Of a stretch of DNA of 64,000 bases, positions 3,901 to 64,000 are shown piece after piece. The translations under genes and the position numbers were made by a program. Source of the stretch: Yuukianura sp. NJ FZ-2021. Lineage: Eukaryota. The stretch is taken from assembly GCA_046563655.1 (NCBI GenBank), contig CM102285.1, positions 14,756,001-14,820,000 on the forward strand. The letters run 5' to 3'. The notes under the pieces were generated by a model. That model did no database searches. It worked only from the letters and a program-made list of their open reading frames with translations, and was not told where the DNA came from. Every line of letters starts with the position of its first letter. Position 1 is the first letter of the stretch.

Positions 3901-4724
3901 TGCACCACTCGGCGCTGAATTTTGTCCCAAGTGATGTCATTTTGTGATAACCAGCGATCAGCCAGGTTCTCCCAAAGCTGTTTTAAAAATTAATCAACTC
4001 ATGTTCTCATATCTTCTCTTTCAAAATTCATAAACTTCAACTTTTAGGTTGAAGTTTGGCTTAAGATTAGGCTTAAGTTTGGCTTAAGGTTAAGTTTCAG
4101 GCTTAAAGTTAGGTTGATGAAAGTGGTACATAAATTATAGACTCTCAGTTTTATGACGAGCGCACTTTGGAAAATTACAATTGCATAGAGGGAGCTATAT
4201 GAGTCAAAGTTAGGCCTAACTTATACCCTTTTTAGTCTAACTTATAGTCTTTTTAGCCTCCATTATTATAGTCTTTTTAGTCTTTTCGCAAAAAGTGACT
4301 CACCCGAAGTCTGAATTCGTTTGGCAGGCCTCCAGGGAGCCTGGCCACCATTCGCATGGCGTCACGCCACTGTGCAAACCCAGACTCCATGCAACTGTCC
4401 CTCATGATCGGTAGGTGCAACGATGGAGAGCCTTGAAAAATTCAAAATTTCAGATTTTCAAAATTTCAAAAAAAAAATTTCGTGAAGCACTAACTGTTGC
4501 AAAAATTTTCTGAAACTGAGGAATAACATGCGGTTTTGGTTCTACTTTGACCTGGTTTGAATCCAATGTCTGTGGAGTGACCTACATTGGCATTTTTTGG
4601 ACGTTTGTCACTCACCTGTTGCTCGACTGCTGGAAATTCCAAGGTCCCTCGAGTGTTGTGGTGACCCTAGCAACAGCGTAGGTGACGATGCCAAAGTCTT
4701 GAGTGAACTGATGAGGTCAGTCAT
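939..4724 (-). CDS. TBC1D30: TBC-domain Rab GTPase-activating protein, TBC1D30-like, multi-exon; start codon uncertain
   Basis: Exons encode QWRDAMRMVARLPGGLPNEFR, IAKDLHRTGC, FARWNGDVGYCQGLNMI and TDVFTMHWFLTLF (TBC Arg- and Gln-finger motifs), followed by a long Ser/Thr-rich terminal exon at ~939-2334. Confidence 0.85.
3428..3779. mobile_element. MITE with TA-CCGTAAAACTT termini (Tc2/pogo-like), inside a TBC intron
   Basis: TACCGTAAAACTTCTAATAAACGCC ... GGCGTTTATGGAAGTTTTACGGTA inverted termini flanked by TA. Internal ~33-bp subrepeats are interrupted by unrelated sequence at ~3547-3707. Confidence 0.8.
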
Positions 4725-5681
4725 CGTTACCGTGACAACGGTAGAAGTTGACCACACGAACCTTGGCTAAGACACACACTTCCTCTTACTGAGGTCACGC
4801 ACGACCACAACTCTGGAAGTTGAGCCCAATTTGGCCCAATTGTATAATTTTAAGTCAGGAGTTGACTAACGTTGTGGTCACAAGTTGATTCATGGAGGTC
4901 ACACGTCAAAGTCAACGAAAAAGTGGAGCTGGAAGTTCCATCTGGATAAAAACTGAAACCAAATGTACTTTCCGACTAAAAAGAAGACTAAAAGTTCCTG
5001 GATGGATTTAAAACTCGAAGAGACTGCCAGTCGACAGAGTCCGAGTCCTCTTTTTTGTGTAATTTCCTGGAGGGGCTCCACTTTCTCTCTCAACTAAAAC
5101 TTTCTCCTCACTTTCACCACACAAACATGCCTGGAATTCCTGGATTCCGGTGTAAATCCGGCTCAAACCGGTTCTTTCTAGGCTTCTAGGAGTCTAGTTT
5201 CTAGATTGACCTCGAACTGACCTTTGACCTTTCCCTCGCCCACTTTCTCCTAAACCCATCTTATGTTATGGTTAACCTCCTCCCGCCCACAGGTACATCA
5301 AAACACTTTGACACCCGACTCTTTTCTATCTACTGTCCGAATTCTTCAAATTTTCAGCCACTTTCTCCTGTTTTTGCAAAATTTTTAGGAAAAAAACTAT
5401 GTTTTTTTTTAATTCTTGGTAGGATCTCAAATCGCATCAAAGTACAGTAGTGCCTAATTAATAAAAATGCTTTTCAAAATTTCGATTTCTGATTTCAAAA
5501 AAAAAAATCATTTTTTGTCAAATTTGTTGTTGCCATGGTTCCATTTATCCATTTTGCAGTCCAAGCTCAAAACTAAATCGTATTCTTCAATTACCTTGAA
5601 CAATGAAGCGTTAAATTGAATTTGAATAATATAGAGAAATTTAATTGGTTTAAAAGTTTGACATAAAGGAAAAAGTGAGTA

Positions 5682-6811
5682 ATGTCCCAAACCGGAGTGA
5701 TTGACCTGGACGATGAAGAGGATGAGGATGACGTGACCTCTACTTTGCATGTCACCGTGAGCGGCGGTCGTCCGGCTCCCAAAAGAGACGTTTACGTCAA
5801 AATGCCGGTGGGAAAGGGCGCCCAGGAGCCGAATTTAGTTCCTCTCAGCAAAATTGAAGAAGTGAAGGACGTTGCAGAGGAAGTGGCCAGTAGACAAACC
5901 AACAATTTCAAACAATTTAAAAAAAGTTCAAAATTTTAAAAATTCAACTTTGTTTCTAAAAGTTTTTTGGTCGAACTAGGTCGAAATATGTTCAAAAGTC
6001 TGCGCGGAGTGTACCGCCTCTATGCAATCGATGCTCTGTTTATCGTCGAAACGAAACTGGACAACATTCCTTTCGGTATGGACTTCAAAATTCCAAAAGG
6101 TCAAAGGTCAAAGGTCAATGACCTTTAAATTTAAATTTTAGACGTGGCGGGAAGTGGTGACCTTGGATTTGAGCTGATCAACCAAGTGGGGCATGCCATT
6201 TACTATGCCACTGGAAAGCGACATCACCCGCTATGTCACCCTCTCTTTGGCCACAAAACGTACCAAGTCACCGTGTTCGACTTTGACGGCATCCCGGTCT
6301 GCGTTTTTGACATGGACAAGGCAATTTGCAAATACGTAAGGTCAAAGGTCAAAGTAAAAGGTCAAAGTTCAAAGGTCATTGACTTTTTTTTAAATCTTTG
6401 TCACAGACTGTTCGGATCCACTCGCCAGCAGGCAAATTCGGTTCGATCCGCTCTTCCGGCTGCACTTTACGCTCCGCCTTTTTCCGAATTCGGAACAAGC
6501 ATTTGCGAACGGACTTTTTGGCGTACCCTCTTCAGTTGACGAGGTCATGGAGGTCAATGGGGGTGCCCCACGAGTATGTGGTGATGGGCGTGACATCGGA
6601 GGCCAAAGTGGCCCACATTGGGAAGGACTGGCCACTGGACACGTTCCCCATCGTGGCCAAGAGAGCAGTCAATCGCAAAGGGAGGATGTACGGAGTTGTG
6701 TTTGAAGATCATCTCATGATGTTCCAGAAGTTGAACATCATAGCACTCTGTTTTGCTATCAAATTTATTAGACAAGACTTTGACAAGCCAAATAGCACAC
6801 TTGACCTTTGA
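5682..6811 (+). CDS. Divergent phospholipid scramblase-like protein (4 exons)
   Basis: In-frame GT-AG joins. The C-terminal KVAHIGKDW...YGVVFEDHLMMFQKLNIIALCFAIKF resembles the scramblase/Tubby-like C-terminal strand-helix pattern. Confidence 0.6.
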
Positions 6812-8003
6812 CATTTCACTTTTTCAAAGAAAAAGTTCAAATTCCGGAGTCCTTTTGTTACTTTTTGAAAATCCTTGAGAGTGGGTCTTCAAAGACTTTT
6901 TTAATTAAATTAACAACGTCTTATCTCCGTGTATGATCTTTTTTAGAAAGTGAAAATAGAAAACGAGTCTAAGATTTTGAATTGTCAACAAATTTTGAAA
7001 TGCCACTTTTTAAAATGCAATCAAAAATATTCGGTTTTATTTTTCAACTAAAATGTCACGGCGTTCTTCCAAACAGTAATTTTATAAATGCTTCTGTGCT
7101 TTCAAAATTTTGGTTGACGTTAACAAACTTTTGTTGTATTGTTACTTTATACTTTTTTTTTGTGGATATAATCAAATTTTGGGAAAAAATTTGAAATTGT
7201 AAAAAATGAGTTAAAAATTTTCAAAACTGTAAGGTGAGAAGGAAAACTTGTCAAAAGTGAGAACAAATAAAAAAAAATTCTCTCTTCAAAATTTTTGAAA
7301 ACATTTGTAACTTTCTTGTTACAAAAAGTTGGTTGCGATAAAGTACAAACTTTCTTCTTGGAAATGAAACTTTTTCTGTCATTTGTTGTTATTTTGTATC
7401 GTTCCATTTTGGTAAAATATGGAATGACATGAAAATATTTCTGTAGTGAGTCCGTCCAAGCATGACCTGTCACTTAATCCTTGTCAGACGAAGAGAGGGA
7501 AAGTTTGAATGAACAAAAAATGCTAAAACTTCGTCTGTCTCGAAAAAGTGAAAGTCTTTTTTGTCATGAATTAGGCAAAGCAGGCAACTGTGACAGCCAA
7601 AGTCATTTGTTATGAAAATCTTTTTCGTTTTCTTCATTTTCAGTTTTTTTTTAAGTCTCCACTTTCTCCGTTTCTGTCTTATTTGGTGTTATTGATGTTT
7701 TACAAAAACGGATTTCGTTTCGACTCAAACAAAGCAGAATCGGATCACGTTTCACTGCCTTTTCCTTTTTGCCTGTCGAAATCTAAACTCAACTTTATTT
7801 TTCAAAATATTTTTTCATTTTGCAGTTTTCCTTGAAAACATTTTCAACCAAAGTGTACTACTATGGTTGCGTCAAATCAAATTCCAAAACTTTCTTTTAG
7901 AAATTCTGAAAAACTTTGAATGAAGTAAGGCTTCCCTGAAAAGCGTAAATTTTGATTTTTGAGAAATCGAAATGTCAAATTTTTGAAAATGGGAGTTTGA
8001 AAA

Positions 8004-8233
8004 ATTTATATGGCTGTGGGTACAACTGGGAAGGTTTAGTTTTCATCAACCAAAAAATTTTTGTTTTTTTTTCTTTATGCTTTGGAGGTCACTCCAGGGT
8101 GAAATGGACTTCTGTTAAAATTTTTACATGGCTGCGGGTACAATTTGGATGGTTTGCTTCACTTCAACCAAAAAAAAACTTTATTTTTAGCATTTTTTTT
8201 TGTTGTGAAGGTCACTCCGGAGTGAAATGGACG
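8004..8233. repeat. Two-copy ~120-bp direct repeat
   Basis: ATGGCTG(T/C)GGGTACAA...GGTCACTCC..GTGAAATGGAC occurs twice in tandem. Confidence 0.75.
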
Positions 8234-39341: not shown

Positions 39342-42300
39342 TTATTTGTTGTGTTTTGAAGTTAGTGCCAAAGATTGTAAAAATTGAGCTTCGAGTGGAA
39401 GTGTTGGATGGGCATTGGAAAGCCGAAAGACATTGAACGGCGACTCGGAAGATTCCAGCGGGTTTCGGGCATCTTCGGAATTCCGATCCAAATCAACAAT
39501 CGGCACCGGAATTGTTACTCCGGTTTTGTTTCGGTTCGGAACGATTCGACTTCGGTTCGGAACTATTCGTGGAGCAAGTGTTGTATTTTGAACAGCTTCC
39601 CAGAAAAGATGAAACTCTGTTTGCGGAGTGACTGAATCTCCGACTCCCTCCGAAGCGATTTCTACAATGTCACGGTAGTTAGGTGTCGTCATGGAAACAG
39701 CATCCGGGTTACCGTTGTCATGGTGACCACTGACTGCATTTCGACTTGTGTCCAGCCGAACTTCTCTCTTGCTTTGAACTGGATCTGAATTGGACGCTTG
39801 GGGTTCCTCAATGTCAGAATCGTACTCTTCCTCGTCACTCTGCCGAGAGGGTGGCGGGAGCTGCCGACTGTTGAACAGTTTCCGACGACGCTGCTGCAGC
39901 GCTTTTAAGCGATCAGACGCTGATCCTGGTGGAATCTTCCGTGCTGGTTTTCTATTTTGAATTACGTCTTTGGGCGAAAGTGTTGGTAGAGAGCTGTGAA
40001 CTTCTCGCACAATCAGCGGTTGAACAGCATTTTGCTGAGCAGCGATTGGCTGAACAGCGATTGGAACAGCGCTGGAAGCGATTGGCGTGTCTGGAGTGGT
40101 TTTGGCCTTTCTGACCTTCACAAGCGGACGGTTTTTGGCCATGAACGGTGGAATTGGTGGGAGAGAAAACTGGGGTGTTTGTGGTGGGGCTGAAACGGGT
40201 GGAGTTGGCTCCACCTCCTTGTAGCGACTGCTGAATTTGGGGGTGGGGTGGGTGGGTTTGGGAGTAGTTTGGTGGGTTTTGATGTTGGTGATGATGGGAT
40301 CTTGGAATGTTGCCGCTGGTTTGAGTTGACGCATAAACTTTGGTCTTAGGCGGTGGGCAGGGTGGGTGGAGGGGGTGGATTCTGAAGCGGGTGGGGGTGT
40401 AGGGGGCGGAGTGGGTGGGGAAACTCTGATTCGTTTGAGTGCCCGTCCCTTGAGTGGATTTGGTTTGGGGGTGGGTGGAAGTTGGATTTGTTGAGAGGGA
40501 GCAACAGTGTCTCGAGGTGGGGGTGGGTGAGTGAAGAGGGTGGGAGTGGGTGGGTTTTTGACTTGGAGAAACGATTGTGGAGTTGGGTGGGCCCTGAGTT
40601 TCGCAACTGCTTCAACTCTTGGAAATTGTTCTGGAGCCACCCTGGTGGGTTCTTCTGTGGCTCTTTGGATTTGCTGGAGTGGCTTTTCTTTTGCCGATCT
40701 CTGGCGTGTCATTTGATCCAGCCGAATTCTTGTTCGGCTTTTTGGAACTTCCACGTCGGAGGTTGGAGAAGCTAGTAAAGAAAAAAAAATGAAAAAAAAA
40801 AGTTCGACATTTTGATTTTTATAGTTGTTTTTTTTTTAAATTTTGAAAACCGAACTCACGCTGGATGATGATTGGCAGCCGGGCGGGTTCTGTCGGTTGA
40901 AAATTTTCGTATAGTTGCTCAGCATGGAATTCCTGTCGTTGTGTTTGCTGTTCCTGTAGCCTTTGTTGTTGCTGTATCCTTTCCTGTTCCTGTTGTCTTT
41001 GTTGCTCTTCTTGTCGTTCTTGTTCCTGTTGCCTTTGTAAATCCTGTTGTCTTTGCTGTTCCTGTTGTTTTTTTAATTCCTGTTGTCTTTGTAAATCCTG
41101 TTGCCTTTGTAAATCCTGTTGTCTTTGCTGTTCCTGTTGTTTTTTTAATTCCTGTTGTCTTTGTAAATCCTGTTGCCTTTGTAAATCCTGCTGTCTTTGT
41201 AATTCTTGTTGTCTCTGTAAATCCTGTTGTCTTTGTAAATCCTGCTGTCTTTGTAATTCTTGTTGTCTCTGTAAATCCTGTTGTCTTTGTAAATCCTGCT
41301 GCCTTTGTTGTTGTTCCTGTTGTCTTTGTCTAGAAAGATGTGATACTTGGAGTGTTTGACGTGTGGGTGAGGTGGGGATGGGTAGAGGTATTAATGGGGG
41401 TAGTCCATTTCCGTAAGTGTGATGCTGCGGAAGTATCACATAACCAGCATACAACCCCCCTTCCTTCGCCAGCATTTTTCCAGTAACATACAAAGGTTTA
41501 CCCCCAGGGGGACGCTGACCTTGACCTTTGTGCTGAACAGCTTGTTTCCTTCCGCGTTGATTTGTTTCTCGACTGGGAAGAGGAACAAACTGAGGAATTG
41601 ACGGTGGTTGTGCAGAAGTCGGCACGAAATGTTGCACTCTGAATCGCTGATTTGGAATTCGGGGGGCAGGGGGTCTCGTTCGTGTTTTGACTTGGAGAGA
41701 AGGCGTTTCCTCATAAACTTGTTGCAAATCAACTGGTGGATCTGGAACGACACCTTCCTGTTGTTCCTCCACTTCCGGTTCACGTTTTTCATTTCCGTTT
41801 CGAAATGTGAGCTGTTGATTTTGGAAATTGTTAACTTTGTTTCTAGTTCTTGGTTGACCTCGATGACCTCGCGTTCGAATGTCGGCATTTTCGTTAGTAG
41901 TTCTTCCTCTGCTGTTTTGTGAGTTGAACCGATTTTGCCGATCATCGACATTTTGTGTGTTGAACTGATTTTGCCGATGATTGGTGATTTGTGAGTTGAA
42001 CTGATTTTGCCGATCGTCGTGCTGTTCATCTTCGAGTGAATTGTGATTCTGGACATGATGGGTAATGTGTTGGTAGTTGTCTACAATTGGTTCTGTTGTT
42101 GTTGTTGTTGTTCCTGTTGTTGTTGTGCGTAATCTTGGACGACTCATGCGCCGTTGAGGCTGTGGAGAGGGCGTGGTTGTTGTTGTTGTTGTTTGTGAGC
42201 GGCCTTCAAATGGCGGAAATCTGGAGCGTCCTCTGGCTCGAATTGTGGCTCTTGTTGGTTCTGTTGTTGTTGTTGTTGTTGTACGACGTGTTGTTGTGAC

Positions 42301-45300
42301 CGCTTCAAAGTTCCTTTGTTCATTAAATTTCCTGTTGTTCGTAATTTCCCGCCCTTCCGCTTCTGTATCCGAAGTATCTGAGGTTTCGTCATACCCCAAA
42401 AATGTTTCCACTTGCTGCGGCTGTGCAGTTGCGTATACATTGGGATTGGGTTCATAATTATCCTGTTGGAGCTGTTCTGTTGGAATGCGTTTTCTTTCCT
42501 GTTGGTGTCTTATTTCCTGTTGGTCTAGAAAGCTTTGGTGTCGTATTTCCTGTTGGCCTGGACGATTGTTTTTGTGTTTTATTTTCTGTTGGCTCGGAAT
42601 ATTTTCGTGTCGTATTTCCTGTTGGTTTATCTCCTGTTGTTCTGGAAGATTTTGTTGTTTTACTTCCTGTTGGTTTTGAAAACGTTGTTTTATTTCCTGT
42701 TGTTGTGGAAAATTTTGCTGGAGTATTTCCTGTTGGTTCTGAAAACGTTGTTTCATTTCCTGTTCTGGAAAATTTTGTTGTAGTATTTCCTGTTGGTTCT
42801 GAAAATGCTGTTTTATTTTCTTTTGCTTTGGAACATTTTCCTGTTTTATTTCCTGTTGGCTCTGAAACTGTTGTTGTATTTCCTGTTGGTCTGGAACAGG
42901 CTGGAAGCTGTAGGGCTGTTCAAACAGTTGATGCTGTTCATCTTCCTTCTGCTTCGCTGAATTTCCAGCTTGCTTCAATTCAGCGTCGAGGTCAAATGCT
43001 GGCTCGACCGTGAATTCATACTGTTCCTGTGGCTTCGGAATTCTGAGTTTGGCTGGGACCGTGTTCGGTCTCTCCGGCGGAGGTTTGCGTTCCGAACTGG
43101 GGATGATTTCTACATTGGGGCCAGAGGTCAAGGTCAAATGTCTGCTGGGGATGAAGGTCTGTTGGTCTTGTGTGTCGACATAGCCATTGAACGGAACGTT
43201 GTTGTTCGGTTGAGCACCAGAGTTCGGCACTGGATCTTCATCAAAGAATTCATACTCGGTTTGTACCGTCTGCGGAGCAAGTGTTGATGGTAGGATTTTG
43301 TCTTCGGCTGGATTCGGCTTTGTTCGGGGATTTTCGTTTTCCCGAAAAGGAGTTTTCGTCACTTCGACTTCGTAATCGGGGTCATCGTAAACATAGATGT
43401 AAGGTCGTTGTTCTTGGAGTTCATGCGATGACGACGAGGGGGGTGACTTCAACCCTGGGGGGTCAAACGGCTTGAAACTGTCTTCGGTCGTTGATTGGCC
43501 AAGGTCAGGCTGCGACGGCTTGAAATTGGTCGGAGTTGGACGTGGAAGGGCCAAGCGACTTCCAGAGTTAACCTTCGGCTGACCAAAATCGCTGATTTCT
43601 TGATGTCTGTCATCTTCTAGAAAATAGTTTTGGAAAAATGAGGGAAAGACGAGCGGACTCTGGCCAAGTGCTTGTGGATTCTGATTGGCTCCAAAATGCT
43701 GGCCAATCGCCTGAGGCAGATTTTGGTTGGATCCGAAATGCTGAGCATTTTGAGCCAACGGTGTGTGAAAACCGCGAATGTCGTACAGAGTTTGCGCCGC
43801 AGAGGTCAGGTCACCTCGGGTGACATGGCCAAACGACTTGGGCTGTCCCGAATTTCGGTTTTTTCTGACTTGAAAAGGAAGTGTCATCAAATGACGAGTC
43901 GTCGGAAGTGAAAAAACTCTTTTCTGAGCAGCGCCTGCGCCGTTTCCTTCCGCCCAAGATGATCCAATGACCAGAAACCACCATATTCCTGAAAAATTTT
44001 AAGAAATTTTGTCAAAATACGGATTTTTTGTTGGAAATGTCGATTGGAATTTATTTTAAGAGTGTCAAATTTTGAAATTTTTGTTAAAAGTGTCAAATTT
44101 TGTAATTTTTGGAGTGAATGGGTTATCTTAATGCTGAGATTGATTGGATAGAAAAGAAAGTGACATGCGTCAAGGGCCGTGGGCAATCGTCAAGTCAAGC
44201 TTGAGTGACCAAAGAGCCAGAGACGCAGTTTTTAACAGAAAAAGAGCGTGAGTGGAAAGCGTATGCGCAGAGGAACTCGTGAATTCGTTTACTTTTGGAC
44301 AAAGTGACAAAAGTGACAGTTTCGCCTTTTCTAATTAACGAACCAGAGATAATTGACACGAAAAGTAAGACCTCAGCACCCTGGTTTGTCTCATTGTCAG
44401 AAAAAATGGGAAATGAGACTGACTTTACCATTATGGGGGAGACTTTTTTGAAAAAATTCACGGCAAAATGAGCCTTTTTTCAAAACTCACGGCAAAATGA
44501 GCCTTTTTTCAAAATCCACGGCAAAATGAGCATTTTTCCAAAATTCATGGCAAAATGAGCCTTTTTGCAAAAATGGCATCTTCATCGCGTCTGTTTTTGA
44601 AACCGGACTTTTGTTTACGGAAACATCGTTACCGTAAATTTTCTAATAGAGTCTAAGTCTAAGTCTAAATGGGCAAAATATTGATATTAGTAATAGTGTT
44701 CTTCCCTTCAAATGATTTGTATGCCAGGGGTATTATTTGGATGTTTGTGGTATTGGACTTGCTTTGAGTATTGTTGGTTTTTGGTGAATGTGCGAGAAAG
44801 ATGGTTTCAATTTCTTTTGGTCTTCATCTTCCTTTTGATGGTTTTGGCAGTAGTAATTGATCTCTGCTCATTGAGCAGTGAAACTGTGCTAAAAAGAGGA
44901 GTTTTTAGCAAATTCACGGTCTCGTAACGCTACTGGTGTCCAACTAACCCAGATGCACAGAAGGAATTCACTCAAATTGACACGACTCATCGCATTTTGC
45001 CAAATTTTTCATATGATCTGTCAACTTTTGTCAAATGCGGAAACGATTCCATTTTTGTCACGCCTGCAGTGGTTGGAATTTATGCGTGCTAGTAACATTA
45101 CCAAAACCCACTGTGGCCTGTTAGCATTTGAACTTGAACTTTTAAATATTTCATGGTCATAAGGAGACAGACGCTATTTTTGAACTGGAATTTCCAAATG
45201 GCGGCAAAATCAAACATGGCATCTGCGCCCTTCTACCTGTGAAGATGCTAATTAACAGTCTCCGCCTAGTGTTCTAATTTAGCCATGAGAACTTTTCACC

Positions 45301-59836: not shown

Positions 59837-60451
59837 TTAGTTAAAGTTAATGACATTCACATTCCAGGATTGCAGAACAAAGGTGAGGAGGAGGAGCCAG
59901 GCGAGTGTGGTTGCGTGGGAAGAGCGACAGAGAAGTGGGTTTGGAGCACCGTAGAGGCACTTGACGAAAGAAGAGATTGTGCTGGTGGAGCAGCGATTCT
60001 TGCCAGCGCTGCAGCAGCGATCGAGGAACTTGGCCAGCGCAGTTGTTTGCTGGAAGTGCCTGGAGTGGCGGCGTGGGTGGAAGCGTTCTTTGTTGAGGTC
60101 ATTGACCTCGTGCGGGGTCATGCCGGCTTTGTGAAATGCATGGCACAGTTGCATGATGGCTACTTTGTCCATGGCTTCTTGGCGCATGCCAGATGAATCT
60201 CCAAGTTCGTCGTAAAAACGCCACATTCTGTCGGGCAAGTACTTGGGCAAGTCTGGATCCAAAGTTGTCGCTTCAGAAGTCGTGGCAGGAGTTGTCACCG
60301 TTGGAGATGTCGTATTGCTGGTGACGGCGACAATTGTCGTAGTGTCATTGACGACATTTTGTCCTGAAGTGACTGCCAGTAGTAACCAAAATACTGTCAA
60401 ACTTGCCCAGCACATTTTCAAGTTCCAGTGACTACCAATTATTCGCATCAT
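59837..60451 (-). CDS. Single-exon secreted, probably GPI-anchored protein with a Thr-rich region and an insulin-like Cys motif
   Basis: Hydrophobic signal ASLTVFWLLLAVTSG, a Thr-rich stretch with N-X-T sequons, LDRCCSAGKNRCSTSTISSFVKC, and a C-terminal hydrophobic tail TLAWLLLLTFVL after SS. Confidence 0.7.
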   Translation of the reverse strand: MMRIIGSHWNLKMCWASLTVFWLLLAVTSGQNVVNDTTTIVAVTSNTTSPTVTTPATTSEATTLDPDLPKYLPDRMWRFYDELGDSSGMRQEAMDKVAIMQLCHAFHKAGMTPHEVNDLNKERFHPRRHSRHFQQTTALAKFLDRCCSAGKNRCSTSTISSFVKCLYGAPNPLLCRSSHATTLAWLLLLTFVLQSWNVNVINFN

Positions 60452-62193
60452 AGCGGGTGACGCGGTCAAAAAAAATTTGCGATGCAGGTTACACGGTCAA
60501 AAAATTTCAAAAAGTCAAAAAGTTTTTTACGGCCAAAAAATTTCTGCAGGGTTCGAAAAAAAATTTTGCAAGGGGACGGGTGACATTTAAAAAAAAATGT
60601 TTTTTCGAAAGTGAGAATCTGGAGAAAATGCGTGTAAAGCTCGTACTCCGTGATCCTTTTTTGGTCGCCATGTCATATCTTTTTTTTTTTTTTGAAAATT
60701 TTTGGAAATAAAATTTTTTTGTAAAAATTTTTTGGAAATAAAATTGAAAAATGGAGCACTGGATGCCGTTAGTTTTTGAGTTTTGGGTTGGATGTGTGAG
60801 AATTTGATTGAGGATTGACCTGGGGGATGGAGGAAAGAGAGCCACTTCCTGCCTATGTCCTGTTACTAAACTAATCACTCATCTAAACTCCAACTTTGTG
60901 AGAAAATATTCAAAAGTCATTCAAAACTACTTTTTAACAACAAATCTGAGATTTTGGACTTGGAGGAAGTAACTATCCCAAGATCCTTGTAGTGGAGGTG
61001 GCAATGACCTTTGACCTCTGCCTGGGAAAGTGGAGTTATTTGACCCAAACTCTTCTTGGGAAATGGTAATTAATTGGCCACAAAAAGACTCATCCACCCC
61101 ACAACTAATTAACCAAGACTTAATTAAAACATTCAAAATTTTCTCACCAATTTTCACTTCAACTTTTTTGTGCAAAAAAAAATTTTTTTATGAAAAACGG
61201 AACCAGGAAATTCCTCCGCCCAAAACCAAAAACCTGGGAGTCAAAGTAGTACTTATAGACTTGTAGATTTACAAAATTTCGTAATAATTTTGGATTTTAG
61301 TTTAGTTTAGTTTAAAAAAAATTTTTTTTTTTAATTTAAAATTTAAAATTCAAAAAAAGTTTTCCCTAAGTTTTCATGAACAGAGCAGATGGAGTAGGAG
61401 AACTTCCGGTTTATTCATCATAATTTCGAAAATTCTCAAATTTTGAAACCGGTGTCAAGAACTACCTCAGTACTTTTTGAAGCATTGTATGAAATTTTTG
61501 CAAATTTCAAAATTATGAAATTTGAAACTGAAAAATTTTGCAAATTTTTTGTTGGTTGAGTTGTAAGGTTGTTAATTGTTGTGATACTTTGTGTTTAGCG
61601 TTGATTAATGAATGGGTGTGAATGAAGTGAAGCGTGGATTACTTTTCCTATGTGAACCAACTTTAAGATTTTTGCAAATCTGGGAAATTTTGCAACTGTG
61701 ATACTTTTCTCGGGGGTGGGGGTGGGTTTTGAGCCAAGAGGGGAGGGGGTGGCTTTTGAGTAAATAGGTGGGGGGGTTCTTTTGAGGGGGGGGGGTGATG
61801 AAGACGATAGAACAATGTCCACTTAAGACCATGGCTTCATTTGGTCACTTCCTTCCGGAAGTGGACGTGGGAAGGGAATGACACCCTCCGCGAAGTTAAT
61901 TGACTCAAAGTAAAAACACCGAATCAGACACCCACCACTCTTCAGTTCCAATTGTTCCGTCGGTGCTTTCGGGTTTACAACTGGGACGTTAATCCTCAAT
62001 CCTCAAAATAAAAAATCCTCCAATTTTCAAAAATCCTCAAAATCCCATAAAAACTTTTTGAAAAACGATTCCAGAATCCTTGGATTCTGCAGAGACAAAT
62101 AAAATATTTGTGGCGTGTTTTGTGTTTGTGGTGAAAGGAAAAGAAAGTTTTTGTGCTTCTATTTATTTGTAGAATAGCAAAATTCTAAGGGAA

Positions 62194-64000
62194 ATGGGTA
62201 AATTAAAATTTAAAATTAAATGAATTAATTGTTTTATAATAGTTTTTAATTAGTTTTAAAACTAATTAATTGTTCTAGGGGGTGATGAGTCTTGGGTGAC
62301 ATTTGTGAGTGATGAAAGCGAGGCTTGGGCTTCCCTTGCTCTTGCGAGATCCATCAAGCGGACTTTCTCCACTAAAAAGTTGACGGCATTTGCAACTGAT
62401 GCTGTCTCTCCTGCTCTCAAGTGAGTCTATTTAAATGTAAATTTAATTCACATTTAAATTAAATAAGTTAATTAAATAATTACGTTATTTTAATATATTT
62501 ATATTTTGTTAGGTTTCTTCTGGAAGATGAATTTGACCTTGTAGTGACCGTGACCTCTACGGATCTGCGCTCTGAATCTCTGCACGGATCTTTGGCTAAG
62601 ATTTTGTGCTGGAAGTTGGCTCCCTGGAACAAGTGTGTGTATGTCCATCCCAATTCTCTGGTAAGGTCAACGTCAAAGTTTTTGCAGGGTCAAAGTCAAA
62701 CTTTTTGCTGGGTCAAAATCAAAGTAAAAGTATTTTCTTGACCAGGCTAAAAGTTTCTGCAGGGTCAAAGTCAAAGTCAAAGTTTTTGGTCAAAGTTAAG
62801 AGATGACATTTAACCAACATTTTTGTCACAGGTTTTGGAAAACTGCGATGAATTGTTTCGAAAAGACGAACTGGCAAGTACTTCCGGGGATACTTTGTCG
62901 CTTTTTGTGTTTCGTCCGAGTGCTAAAACGTTTTGGAGTCTGTTGCGTGCAGTTGAGAAGGGAAACTACGCTGATTTTGGAGAAGTTGTCCAGGAAAAGT
63001 TTCCAGGAATCAAGCGAAGAGTACTGGATGAAAAATATGGTGCTGCAGTGGGAGAAGAGGGAGTCAAAGTTGGGTAATGTTTAGAAATTTTTTTTTTAGT
63101 TTTTCAAAATCTTTCAAACTTTCCCAGTTTTCTTGATTTGGGCTTTTTCCTTTTCCAGGTCCAAGGGTCTCAAGCTGATCAACTTTGTTCAGCATCCTTG
63201 GAAAATGGACGGATCGAAGCAAAAGAAAATGGCGGAAGTAAACACCATTTTCGAAACTTACAACAAATAAGTTTCAAAATTTTATCGTTTTTATAATTTT
63301 GTTTGGTTCTAAAATTACTTTTTTGTAGAACTTTCTTTCCGTTTGGCATGAAATTTATTTCGGAGACGTTCTTCCGCTTGTTCAAAATTTGAAGGTAGGC
63401 AGACTCGCATCTCTGATAGTTGAATCATTAAATTCTTTCATTTTTCAAAATTTAAAATTATAATTATTATTTTTTTAAAAAAACTTTTTCAAAACACTTT
63501 TTTTTAGAAAACTGAAATTCGCCAAGCGTTAGTTGACTCTTTGGCTTCAAACGGCCTCCCACCAGGAACCTCTCCGCGTGACGCTCCAGAAATTCTGATT
63601 CCAGAAGAATTGTCCGACGCCGTGGCAATCGTTGGCATGAGTTGTCGTTTTCCCGGTGCAAATTCTGTTGCCGACTTCTGGAATTTTCTGATTGAAGGCC
63701 GAGATCCGATTCGGGAATACCCGGCAGATCGTCCGAACTACACCGACTGCCTCACTGACGACACTTACTTTGGAGCTGGATTTCTGACATGCCCAGTTGA
63801 CGAATTTGATGCTAAATTCTTTGGAATTAGTCCGCGTGAGGCTCCATTTGTGGATCCCCAGCAGAGACTTCTGCTGGAAGTGACTTGGGAGAGTCTGGAA
63901 GACGCTGGAATCAATCCGCACACGCTCAAGGAGTCTGACACTGGAGTGTTCATGGGCATTTGGCAACAAGACTACGATCGCTTTTTGCCCAACAAAGGCT
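62194..64000 (+). CDS. Type I polyketide synthase (5' partial) with an N-terminal glycogenin-like GT8 domain; exons 62194-62197, 62279-62420, 62513-62660, 62832-63073, 63159-63237, 63329-63394, 63508->64000
   Basis: Six GT-AG introns join in frame (681 nt = 227 codons of GT8-like sequence). A 36-aa linker follows, then the KS N-terminus VAIVGMSCRFPGA...FDAKFFGISPREA..DPQQRLLLEVTWESLEDAGI...TGVFMGI. The ORF track misses it because it runs off the window. Confidence 0.9.

Follow-up and report, generated by a model that had tools for sequence, protein, structure and literature searches.

Gene model at the end of the window

At one end of a 64,000-nucleotide stretch of contig CM102285.1 (assembly GCA_046563655.1, positions 14,756,001 to 14,820,000; the whole stretch is hereafter "the window" and is numbered from its first letter) lies a predicted gene that joins a glycogenin-like head to the N-terminal half of a ketosynthase (KS), the first part of a type I polyketide synthase (PKS). 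The predicted model spans 62194-64000 on the forward strand and has seven exons; it is stop-free over 391 codons, and the gene continues past the end of the window. We built the exon model with tblastn, using a related protein (P0049) as the guide, and then checked it. A preliminary description of this DNA had counted six introns in 227 glycogenin-like codons, and both counts are exact in our model: there are exactly 227 codons upstream of the KS exon, and they are interrupted by six introns of 81, 92, 171, 85, 91, and 113 nt, all running from GT to AG and with a GC content of 23%.

Exon 1 (62194..62197, forward strand, as are all the exons) comprises a putative start codon and one further base, followed by the donor GTAAAT. 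We infer that the start codon is at 62194. Exons 1 and 2, when joined, give M-G-G-D-E-S-W and are stop-free; there is no in-frame ATG inside exon 2 ahead of its conserved ESWVT motif; and the start codons of relatives lie 3-12 residues ahead of the same motif. Exon 2 (62279..62420) encodes the first beta-alpha unit of the head (ESWVTFVSDESEAW...), exon 3 (62513..62660) encodes the segment with the DxD position, and exon 4 (62832..63073) encodes a segment whose VLENCDELF... matches VLANIDDLF... of glycogenin. Exon 5 (63159..63237) is placed in the head by its frame and its GT-AG sites, as its similarity to glycogenin is not detectable by sequence search; by eye, it aligns with the VVHFLGRVKPW region of glycogenin, with the histidine replaced (this alignment is unscored). 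Exon 6 (63329..63394), which is also placed by frame and splice sites, would form the last helix of the head and carries a W..I.F.DVLP motif that is common to P0049 and to springtail proteins. Exon 7 (63508..64000) begins with about 35 residues of linker, continues with the N-terminal half of the KS, and is cut by the window end.

The frame of exon 7 is open from 63508 to 63999 (164 codons), where it reaches the window end. Its residues 37-158 match the N-terminal ketoacyl-synthase domain (PF00109, model positions 2-129 of 252) with a score of 131.8 bits, as compared to a gathering cut-off of 20.8 bits (E = 4.3e-38). Both of the KS motifs claimed in the preliminary description, FDAKFFGISPREA and DPQQRLLLEVTWESLEDAGI, are located in this exon. 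The same description had judged the KS to be nearer to bacterial type I PKSs than to animal fatty acid synthase (FAS), and this is borne out by the PDB: the KS exon matches DEBS-type chains at 100-110 bits and human and mouse FAS at 64-66 bits. When the KS exon was compared to proteins of 288-2000 amino acids, all of the source-named proteins among the best 120 matches were bacterial type I PKSs (roughly 41-56% identical). The exception among these 120 was P0049 (440 amino acids), which is 62% identical over 99% of the query (161 amino acids in the tblastn comparison). Over 120 amino acids, the KS in the window is also 55% identical to a protein from the springtail Orchesella (P0293).

The preliminary description also called the head glycogenin-like, and several comparisons agree. 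When exons 2, 3, and 4 were each searched alone against the PDB, glycogenin-1 ranked first every time, and the three matches are collinear (glycogenin-1 residues 4-47, 75-105, and 108-161), with E-values that are individually weak (0.32, 0.029, and 0.24, respectively). A hidden Markov model (HMM) of the head family finds exon 2 with E = 8e-12 (model positions 6-51), exon 3 with E = 4e-9 (positions 51-120), and exon 4 with E = 5.8e-9 (positions 101-181). The heads of the window gene and of P0049 are 30-43% identical (43% over 55 amino acids for exon 2, by tblastn). P0049 itself is similar to human and rabbit glycogenin-1 over its residues 4-171 (E = 2e-29), and the sequence similarity ends at residue 171. 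The AlphaFold model of P0049 has pLDDT values of 79-90 at residues 1-60 and is confident only over the first 110-160 residues (the mean pLDDT is 56). When this model was compared to known structures with Foldseek, the top 40 hits were all glycogenins (E = 3e-19 to 4e-17), with alignments of about 260 columns and target TM scores of 0.62-0.69. These were followed by a protist Skp1 galactosyltransferase (E = 8.5e-12) and by bacterial members of glycosyltransferase family 8 (GT8; LgtC, GlyE, and PDB entry 3tzt, E = 1e-7 to 1e-8). Because glycogenins rank far above the bacterial GT8 proteins, the predicted fold of the head appears to be of the eukaryotic glycogenin type.

Head and KS in related genes

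P0049, a metagenomic protein, has the same head and KS within one open frame. When we scanned metagenome contigs with P0049, we obtained 36 loci, 28 of them on contigs from one record set. According to the head family HMM, run in the three forward frames, 17 of these 36 loci, as well as the window, have head exons ahead of the KS. All 17 belong to the animal clade that is described below, which includes 30 of the metagenome loci; for most of the remaining 13, less than 0.6 kb of sequence precedes the KS. One locus (L028) has a weak trace of the head.

The head is also present in annotated springtail proteins. Among 392 collected proteins, a phmmer search with residues 1-245 of P0049 matched, apart from P0049 itself, 12 springtail PKSs (E = 2.5e-19 to 2.9e-8) and nothing else; no bacterial protein was among the matches. 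The matches cover residues ~4-170 of the springtail proteins, and the KS begins at residue 240-263. We had collected 15 springtail-named PKSs (from Orchesella and Folsomia), and the three in which the head was not found are either N-terminally short or have no KS. A search for the head among proteins of 771-2200 amino acids returned none, which is uninformative because the proteins of this family run to 2,800-3,200 amino acids. In a search of protein representatives with P0049, the best 150 matches were all of 4,061-7,920 residues, with 4-6 KS stretches that sum their scores, and they are silent on the fusion. We found no usable match for P0049 in the ESM Atlas.

The frame of P0049 (440 amino acids on a 1,488-base contig) is unbroken where all of the genomic relatives that we examined carry head introns. 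Past residue ~407, it turns into unrelated sequence, and it is absent from the 36 metagenome loci that were returned (the best identity is 69%). It resembles the product of a spliced transcript that kept one intron or has a frameshift; if so, then it is an indirect sign that the head and the KS are expressed as one mRNA in a relative.

To place the window gene, we computed a tree for the N-terminal part of the KS (91 rows by 129 columns; IQ-TREE with LG+C20 and a careful search). We excluded L026, L027, and L034-L036, which have multiple KS domains or are of low identity and prokaryote-like, as well as P0277, which has no KS, and P0291. The window gene falls in a clade of 50 rows (ultrafast bootstrap 99, SH-aLRT 94; support values are given in this order) together with P0049, 30 metagenome loci, all 13 springtail rows, and 5 unnamed rows. 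Among the 31 metagenome loci in the tree, only L030 lies outside of this clade. The clade divides into a subclade of 16 rows that includes the window and no annotated springtail row (97/84) and a springtail subclade of 34 rows (99/91), and head-bearing loci are found in both. A tree of relatives from the C-terminal part of the KS and the acyltransferase (AT; 55 rows by 548 columns, quick search) recovers the same clade, with 22 rows (SH-aLRT 100). By its KS sequence, the window gene appears to be a member of the springtail-type PKS family.

The sister row of the 50-row clade is L030 (95/88). In this locus, an intronless frame (4380-8102, forward strand) encodes AMP-binding, acyl carrier protein (ACP), KS, and AT domains; the contig is prokaryote-style, and PAP2 and GT1 genes lie next to the frame. 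The AMP-binding domain, which is similar to fatty-acyl-AMP ligases, and the ACP precede the KS of L030; the animal family has its glycogenin-like head in that place. Two of the excluded loci, L026 and L027, measure 20.4 kb each and come from contigs of 158 and 186 kb. Both contain five KS matches, identical in coordinates and scores between the two loci, and their GC content is 36.5%. They represent a multimodular PKS that occurs in two metagenome records, and they clearly lie outside the animal family.

One relative, L004 (12.3 kb), contains the whole gene. Its head exons are followed by a KS in four pieces that are split by introns of ~40-55 nt; then by an exon of 6,087 nt that encodes the end of the KS, the AT, a dehydratase (DH), a C-methyltransferase (cMT), an enoylreductase (ER), and a ketoreductase (KR); and finally by an exon for the ACP and a stop codon. 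Thus, the domain order according to Pfam is head-KS-AT-DH-cMT-ER-KR-ACP, and we found no thioester-reductase domain within 2.5 kb downstream of the ACP. AT-DH-cMT-ER-KR-ACP after the KS is also seen in P0272 and P0273. By eye, the exon translations of L004 contain the Cys-His-His residues of the KS (SGCSSS, EAHGTGT, and KTNIGHAES). Its AT has the motifs GHSVG (GHSxG) and HGFH, and other members have HAFH, either of which we take to indicate malonyl-CoA as the substrate.

When we compared the 6,087-nt exon of L004 to proteins of 1115-3551 amino acids, the top named matches were 15 proteins of springtails (Orchesella dallaii supplied 13 of them, and O. cincta and Folsomia candida one each), which are 32-35% identical at 99-100% coverage. 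These were followed by cyanobacterial, myxobacterial, and other bacterial PKSs. Against the PDB, the AT-KR part of L004 matched mycocerosic acid synthase (MAS) at 553 bits, Dictyostelium PKS16 at 377, pig FAS at 376, DEBS at 375, human FAS at 372, the fungal LovB at 351, and the mollusc EcPKS1 at 331.

The distribution of introns bears on the age of the fusion. In the window, there are 6 introns in 681 coding nucleotides of the head and none in the 493 nt of the KS exon, where 4.3 would be expected. The Poisson probability of finding none is about 0.013, so the contrast in the window alone is only mildly significant; the 6,087-nt exon of L004 shows a larger contrast. The preliminary description had reported an abrupt change in intron density at the start of the KS exon. 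The 493 nt are indeed free of introns, but the break is not at the joint between the GT8-like head and the KS, because the KS holds 0-3 short introns depending on the paralog: three in L002, L003, L004, and L011, two in L005, one in the loci of subclade B, and none in L006. The exon breaks at head HMM positions ~50/51 and ~101 are present in the window as well as in each subclade, and the intron after exon 3 (position ~101) is common to L003, L004, L021, L023, L013, L016, L018, L022, L025, and L031. Because each of the subclades carries these two head introns, the fusion appears to be an old, family-wide, and domesticated chimera. This pattern fits old head introns with later gain and loss of introns in the body, and the shared positions do not prove that the head introns came from glycogenin. 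Across L002-L033, the number of KS introns varies while the head introns are stable, which could provide a small data set on intron gain and loss in a transferred gene.

Origin of the PKS body and state of the head

We propose that the window contains the 5' end of a large, iterative, and highly reducing type I PKS from a family that is otherwise annotated only in springtails (Collembola). The enzyme would begin with a glycogenin-derived GT-A domain of ~230 residues, a short linker, and the KS, and, judging by its relatives, it would continue with AT-DH-cMT-ER-KR-ACP; the springtail subclade would add a terminal reductase. The relatives' domains suggest repeated extension with malonyl units, C-methylation from S-adenosylmethionine (SAM), and full reduction, which would yield a methyl-branched, lipid-like chain. 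We also considered springtail cuticular hydrocarbons as the product, and this idea is unsupported: known springtail cuticular lipids are described as mostly terpenoid in the text available from PMC10825826. As to its history, a bacterial-type PKS body resembling MAS would have entered an ancestor of the animal lineage, where the 5' part of a glycogenin paralog would have been joined ahead of it. This chimera would then have multiplied into dozens of paralogs, with small KS introns being gained and lost. We consider this explanation as a whole, that is, a glycogenin-headed PKS of the springtail type with a transferred body and an old fusion, to be probable.

For the PKS body, a bacterial origin is likely, not proven. 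We favor it because of the rankings in the PDB, the named match lists, the prokaryote-style sister row L030, and the literature. In Folsomia candida, 30 type I PKS clusters are reported, and most genes in its biosynthetic clusters are classed as horizontally transferred (PMC5490193). Similarly, Lin and colleagues (2024) cite a Folsomia PKS as having been acquired horizontally (PMC10764717).

Several observations weigh against parts of our explanation, and some of them favor an alternative in which the PKS body is an old eukaryotic or animal lineage that was lost elsewhere and that looks bacterial because its domains are conserved and the databases are heavy with bacteria. PKSs were found in every animal phylum that Lin and colleagues examined, save sponges and ctenophores (PMC10764717). 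Both of our trees are made up of bacteria, springtails, and unnamed rows only, and have no animal FAS, echinoderm or vertebrate PKSs, or fungal PKSs. Because there are no rows from other eukaryotic PKSs or FASs, an old eukaryotic origin is compatible with the trees alone. Furthermore, the stem of the clade is long (0.33-0.53 changes per column), with no donor lineage resolved, and over AT-KR the two subclades are 33-35% identical to each other, which is about the same as their identity to bacteria (30-34%). The codon composition is also fully host-like: GC3 (GC content at third codon positions) is 0.454 in the head and 0.470 in the KS exon. Because these values are nearly equal, there is no compositional seam at the joint, which shows the age of the fusion and not the source of the body. 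In the other direction, for both the KS of the window and the AT-KR part of L004, the PDB ranks bacterial PKSs well above animal FAS, the mollusc animal FAS-like PKS (AFPK), and the fungal LovB and psoA; the best 120 full-length matches of the L004 exon carry names only from springtails and bacteria; a prokaryote-style contig supplies the nearest outgroup row; and the Folsomia PKSs have been classed as horizontally transferred in print, as cited above. On balance, we think that an old eukaryotic origin is improbable.

Other points against our explanation concern the extent of the evidence. Just 122 residues of the KS lie within the window and the active-site cysteine is past its end, so to speak of the rest of the enzyme is to read it from relatives whose KS is 47-69% identical. 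The KS_C-AT tree has 27 rows with deviant amino-acid composition and was computed with a quick search only. Three loci have no head in the 1.2-2.7 kb before the KS, even with loose thresholds (L007, 1-1219; L008, 1-1468; and L010, 1-2704), which could reflect either longer introns or loss of the head. The Pfam model for GT8 (PF01501) does not match the window exons or P0049 at E-values up to 1, and the structural model of P0049 is poor beyond residue ~165, with pLDDT below 60 in its C-terminal half. The label "springtail" is taken from the PKS family alone.

The DxD motif, which binds the metal in glycogenin (D-A-D), reads H-P-N in the window, where "kcvyvhpn" aligns to "kcvfmdad" of glycogenin-1. 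D-x-D is not found in any of the family copies that we examined (DSN, HPN, ESN, DPT, ASG, and DAK) or in any of the 12 springtail copies (DPE, SPN, SPD, EPT, and DCN). Because this motif is lost, the head appears from its sequence to be a catalytically dead pseudo-glycosyltransferase. Could it still be an enzyme that uses altered metal ligands to glycosylate the polyketide or to prime itself in the manner of glycogenin? The model of P0049 retains what looks like the whole GT-A fold (~260 columns), the head is under selection, and a motif of the NCDELFD type, matching NIDDLFD of glycogenin, is conserved. Also, one springtail copy has D-P-E at the DxD site, which weighs against a uniformly dead head, and some paralogs might keep a remnant of the metal site. 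However, besides the loss of D-x-D, the asparagine and tyrosine positions of glycogenin's TNDAY stretch, which presumably contact the uridine, are replaced in the alignment with P0049, and the region of glycogenin's acceptor tyrosine and histidine ligand cannot be aligned by sequence and is poorly modelled. We therefore doubt strongly that the head is active.

The head is kept by purifying selection and is more than a promoter donor. For the head exons, dN/dS was 0.254 between L003 and L004 (145 codons) and 0.10 between L021 and L023 (92 codons); for the KS exons of the same pairs, it was 0.078 and 0.184. These values come from two pairs and few codons, which is a further point on the negative side. 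The preliminary description had proposed that a duplicated glycogenin gene supplied the promoter and 5' exons, and the selection on the head (dN/dS of 0.10-0.25) does not support that role alone. We suggest that the head is retained since the enzyme needs it, beyond any promoter that it donated, and that it might be a non-catalytic N-terminal module that serves as a scaffold, a dimer element, or a recruiter of a partner or starter; this is the least certain part of our proposal. More tentatively, and with the odds somewhat against it, the head could be an obligatory N-terminal module of a kind that is new for PKSs, a host fold that was recruited once, when the bacterial body lost its loading region, and that now serves the whole family as a dimer clamp, a dock for a starter or partner, or a targeting device.

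The preliminary description was right in outline and wrong in timing and scope: a PKS resembling those of bacteria does sit behind a head of eukaryotic type, as it proposed, and the joining is old and family-wide rather than specific to this locus. If the capture were recent and peculiar to this locus, with a new bacterial PKS landing behind a duplicated glycogenin gene that gave only a promoter and 5' exons, this would account for the glycogenin type of the head and for intron-rich head exons next to an uninterrupted KS exon. Such an event is very improbable, as the family has at least 50 rows and each of its two deep subclades shows the same fusion and the shared head introns, the heads of the window gene and P0049 have diverged to the identities given above, no step in GC3 separates the head from the KS, and the head is under purifying selection. 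Finally, the window ends within the gene and shows one flank of it, which might raise the concern of bacterial contamination or of a chimeric assembly near 63400-63600. Independent data effectively exclude this: the joint, which in the window is an in-frame, spliced intron followed by a conserved linker, is found again in P0049, 17 metagenome loci, and 12 annotated springtail proteins from three species. The KS exon also has host-like GC3. The preliminary description had likewise argued against contamination, given the ordinary animal genes that flank the PKS gene.

Known systems and other features of the window

The springtail PKSs of Folsomia candida, Orchesella dallaii, and O. cincta are annotated as "erythronolide synthase", "LovF", or "Pks15/1". 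The window gene shares with them a single KS clade, the same glycogenin-like N-terminus ahead of the KS, and (in its relatives) the same reducing set of KS-AT-DH-cMT-ER-KR-ACP. It differs in lying in the sister subclade, and L004 ends after the ACP, whereas the springtail proteins carry the additional domain PF07993. Among solved structures, the best match for AT-KR of L004 is to the MAS and MAS-like iterative PKSs (PDB 9d2z, 9d2y, and 5bp4). As read from the relatives' domains, the family is similarly single-module, fully reducing, and iterative. In contrast, MAS obtains its methyl branches from methylmalonyl-CoA, while this family has a SAM-dependent C-methyltransferase and a malonyl-type AT motif; and MAS has neither the glycogenin-like head nor introns. 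The head resembles glycogenin-1 and glycogenin-2 (CAZy GT8; PDB 3t7m, 1ll2, and 4ueg) in the sequence and predicted fold of P0049 and in the collinear exons of the window. It differs from glycogenin in its replaced DxD motif, in having no alignable acceptor-tyrosine region and no tail for binding glycogen synthase, and in being fused to a PKS.

Animal FAS and the AFPKs of molluscs and arthropods (PDB 2vz8, 8vf7, and 9cq1) are cytosolic animal megasynthases with the same domain order, but their scores are far lower than those of bacterial PKSs (64-66 versus 100-110 bits for the KS, and 331-376 versus 553 bits for AT-KR), and FAS has no N-terminal head. The nonribosomal peptide synthetase (NRPS) and PKS systems of bdelloid rotifers (PMC11258130) and the PKS-1/NRPS-1 system of nematodes (PMC13683363) are also horizontally acquired, bacterial-like megasynthases that reside in animals, contain introns, and are expanded or conserved within a lineage. 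Unlike the window family, they are multimodular NRPS/PKS hybrids. The words "glycogenin" and "glycosyltransferase" do not occur in PMC13683363, and the available text of PMC11258130 has one "glycosyl" passage and does not mention a glycogenin or glycosyltransferase head. We had considered nematode PKS-1 as a relative and dropped it, as the window gene has a single module and its family groups with springtails in the tree. A bdelloid rotifer origin was also dropped, as nothing supports it.

The springtail PKS family and its label of horizontal transfer are already published. We did not find any description of a glycogenin-derived head on a PKS: "glycogenin" does not occur in the main texts of PMC5490193 and PMC10764717, whose supplements might list domain maps. 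On its own, the window is modest news, as it adds a further family member, truncated after 391 codons. The wider interest is that one can rarely see how a transferred gene turns into a working gene of an animal, and in this family the joint survives in dozens of paralogs, which gives a concrete model, open to testing, of domestication through the capture of 5' exons. The head would also add a pseudo-enzyme domain to the known N-terminal modules of PKSs; the head together with the KS provides a sequence marker for the family in unannotated soil-animal and metagenome data; and the family flags an unexplored animal source of methyl-branched, reduced polyketides. If the head does turn out to be an obligatory module, then the family would show, in a case that can be dated, how a transferred megasynthase came to work in an animal.

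The locus has the traits of a host gene: spliceosomal introns, host-like GC3, and animal neighbor genes. The neighbors upstream are of animal type and include a rhodopsin-type G-protein-coupled receptor, PRP3, a 3'-5' exonuclease, DUS3L/Dus, and genes with FERM and IBR domains; in the ESM Atlas, PRP3 matched broad eukaryotic clusters only. The preliminary description had ordinary animal genes flanking the PKS gene; this holds for the upstream flank, which is the only one seen, as the gene runs off the window at its other end.

The gene is preceded by a spacer of ~1.7 kb (60497..62193) that is AT-rich and that, by its position only, is presumed to be the promoter region. On the far side of the spacer, an open reading frame of 219 codons on the minus strand (59840-60496) encodes a hydrophobic N-terminus and a threonine-rich stretch, has no match in Pfam, and is divergent from the PKS gene, so the spacer could be a divergent promoter region. 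An Rfam scan of the 64-kb window gave no matches.

Farther upstream, two adjoining, very long open reading frames on the minus strand (39345-43998; 497 and 1,059 codons) are rich in proline, threonine, and short repeats, and are mucin-like. They coincide with a strong strand skew in the bins at 40-44 kb (GC skew of up to 0.27 and AT skew of -0.33). Lastly, by eye, short-repeat runs resembling GGTCAAAG or GTCAAAGTTTTTG are found in intron 3 of the PKS gene (62661-62831), which is the longest of the head introns, and in the upstream spacer (60440-60560); these runs are possibly a small repeat or the remnant of a transposon.

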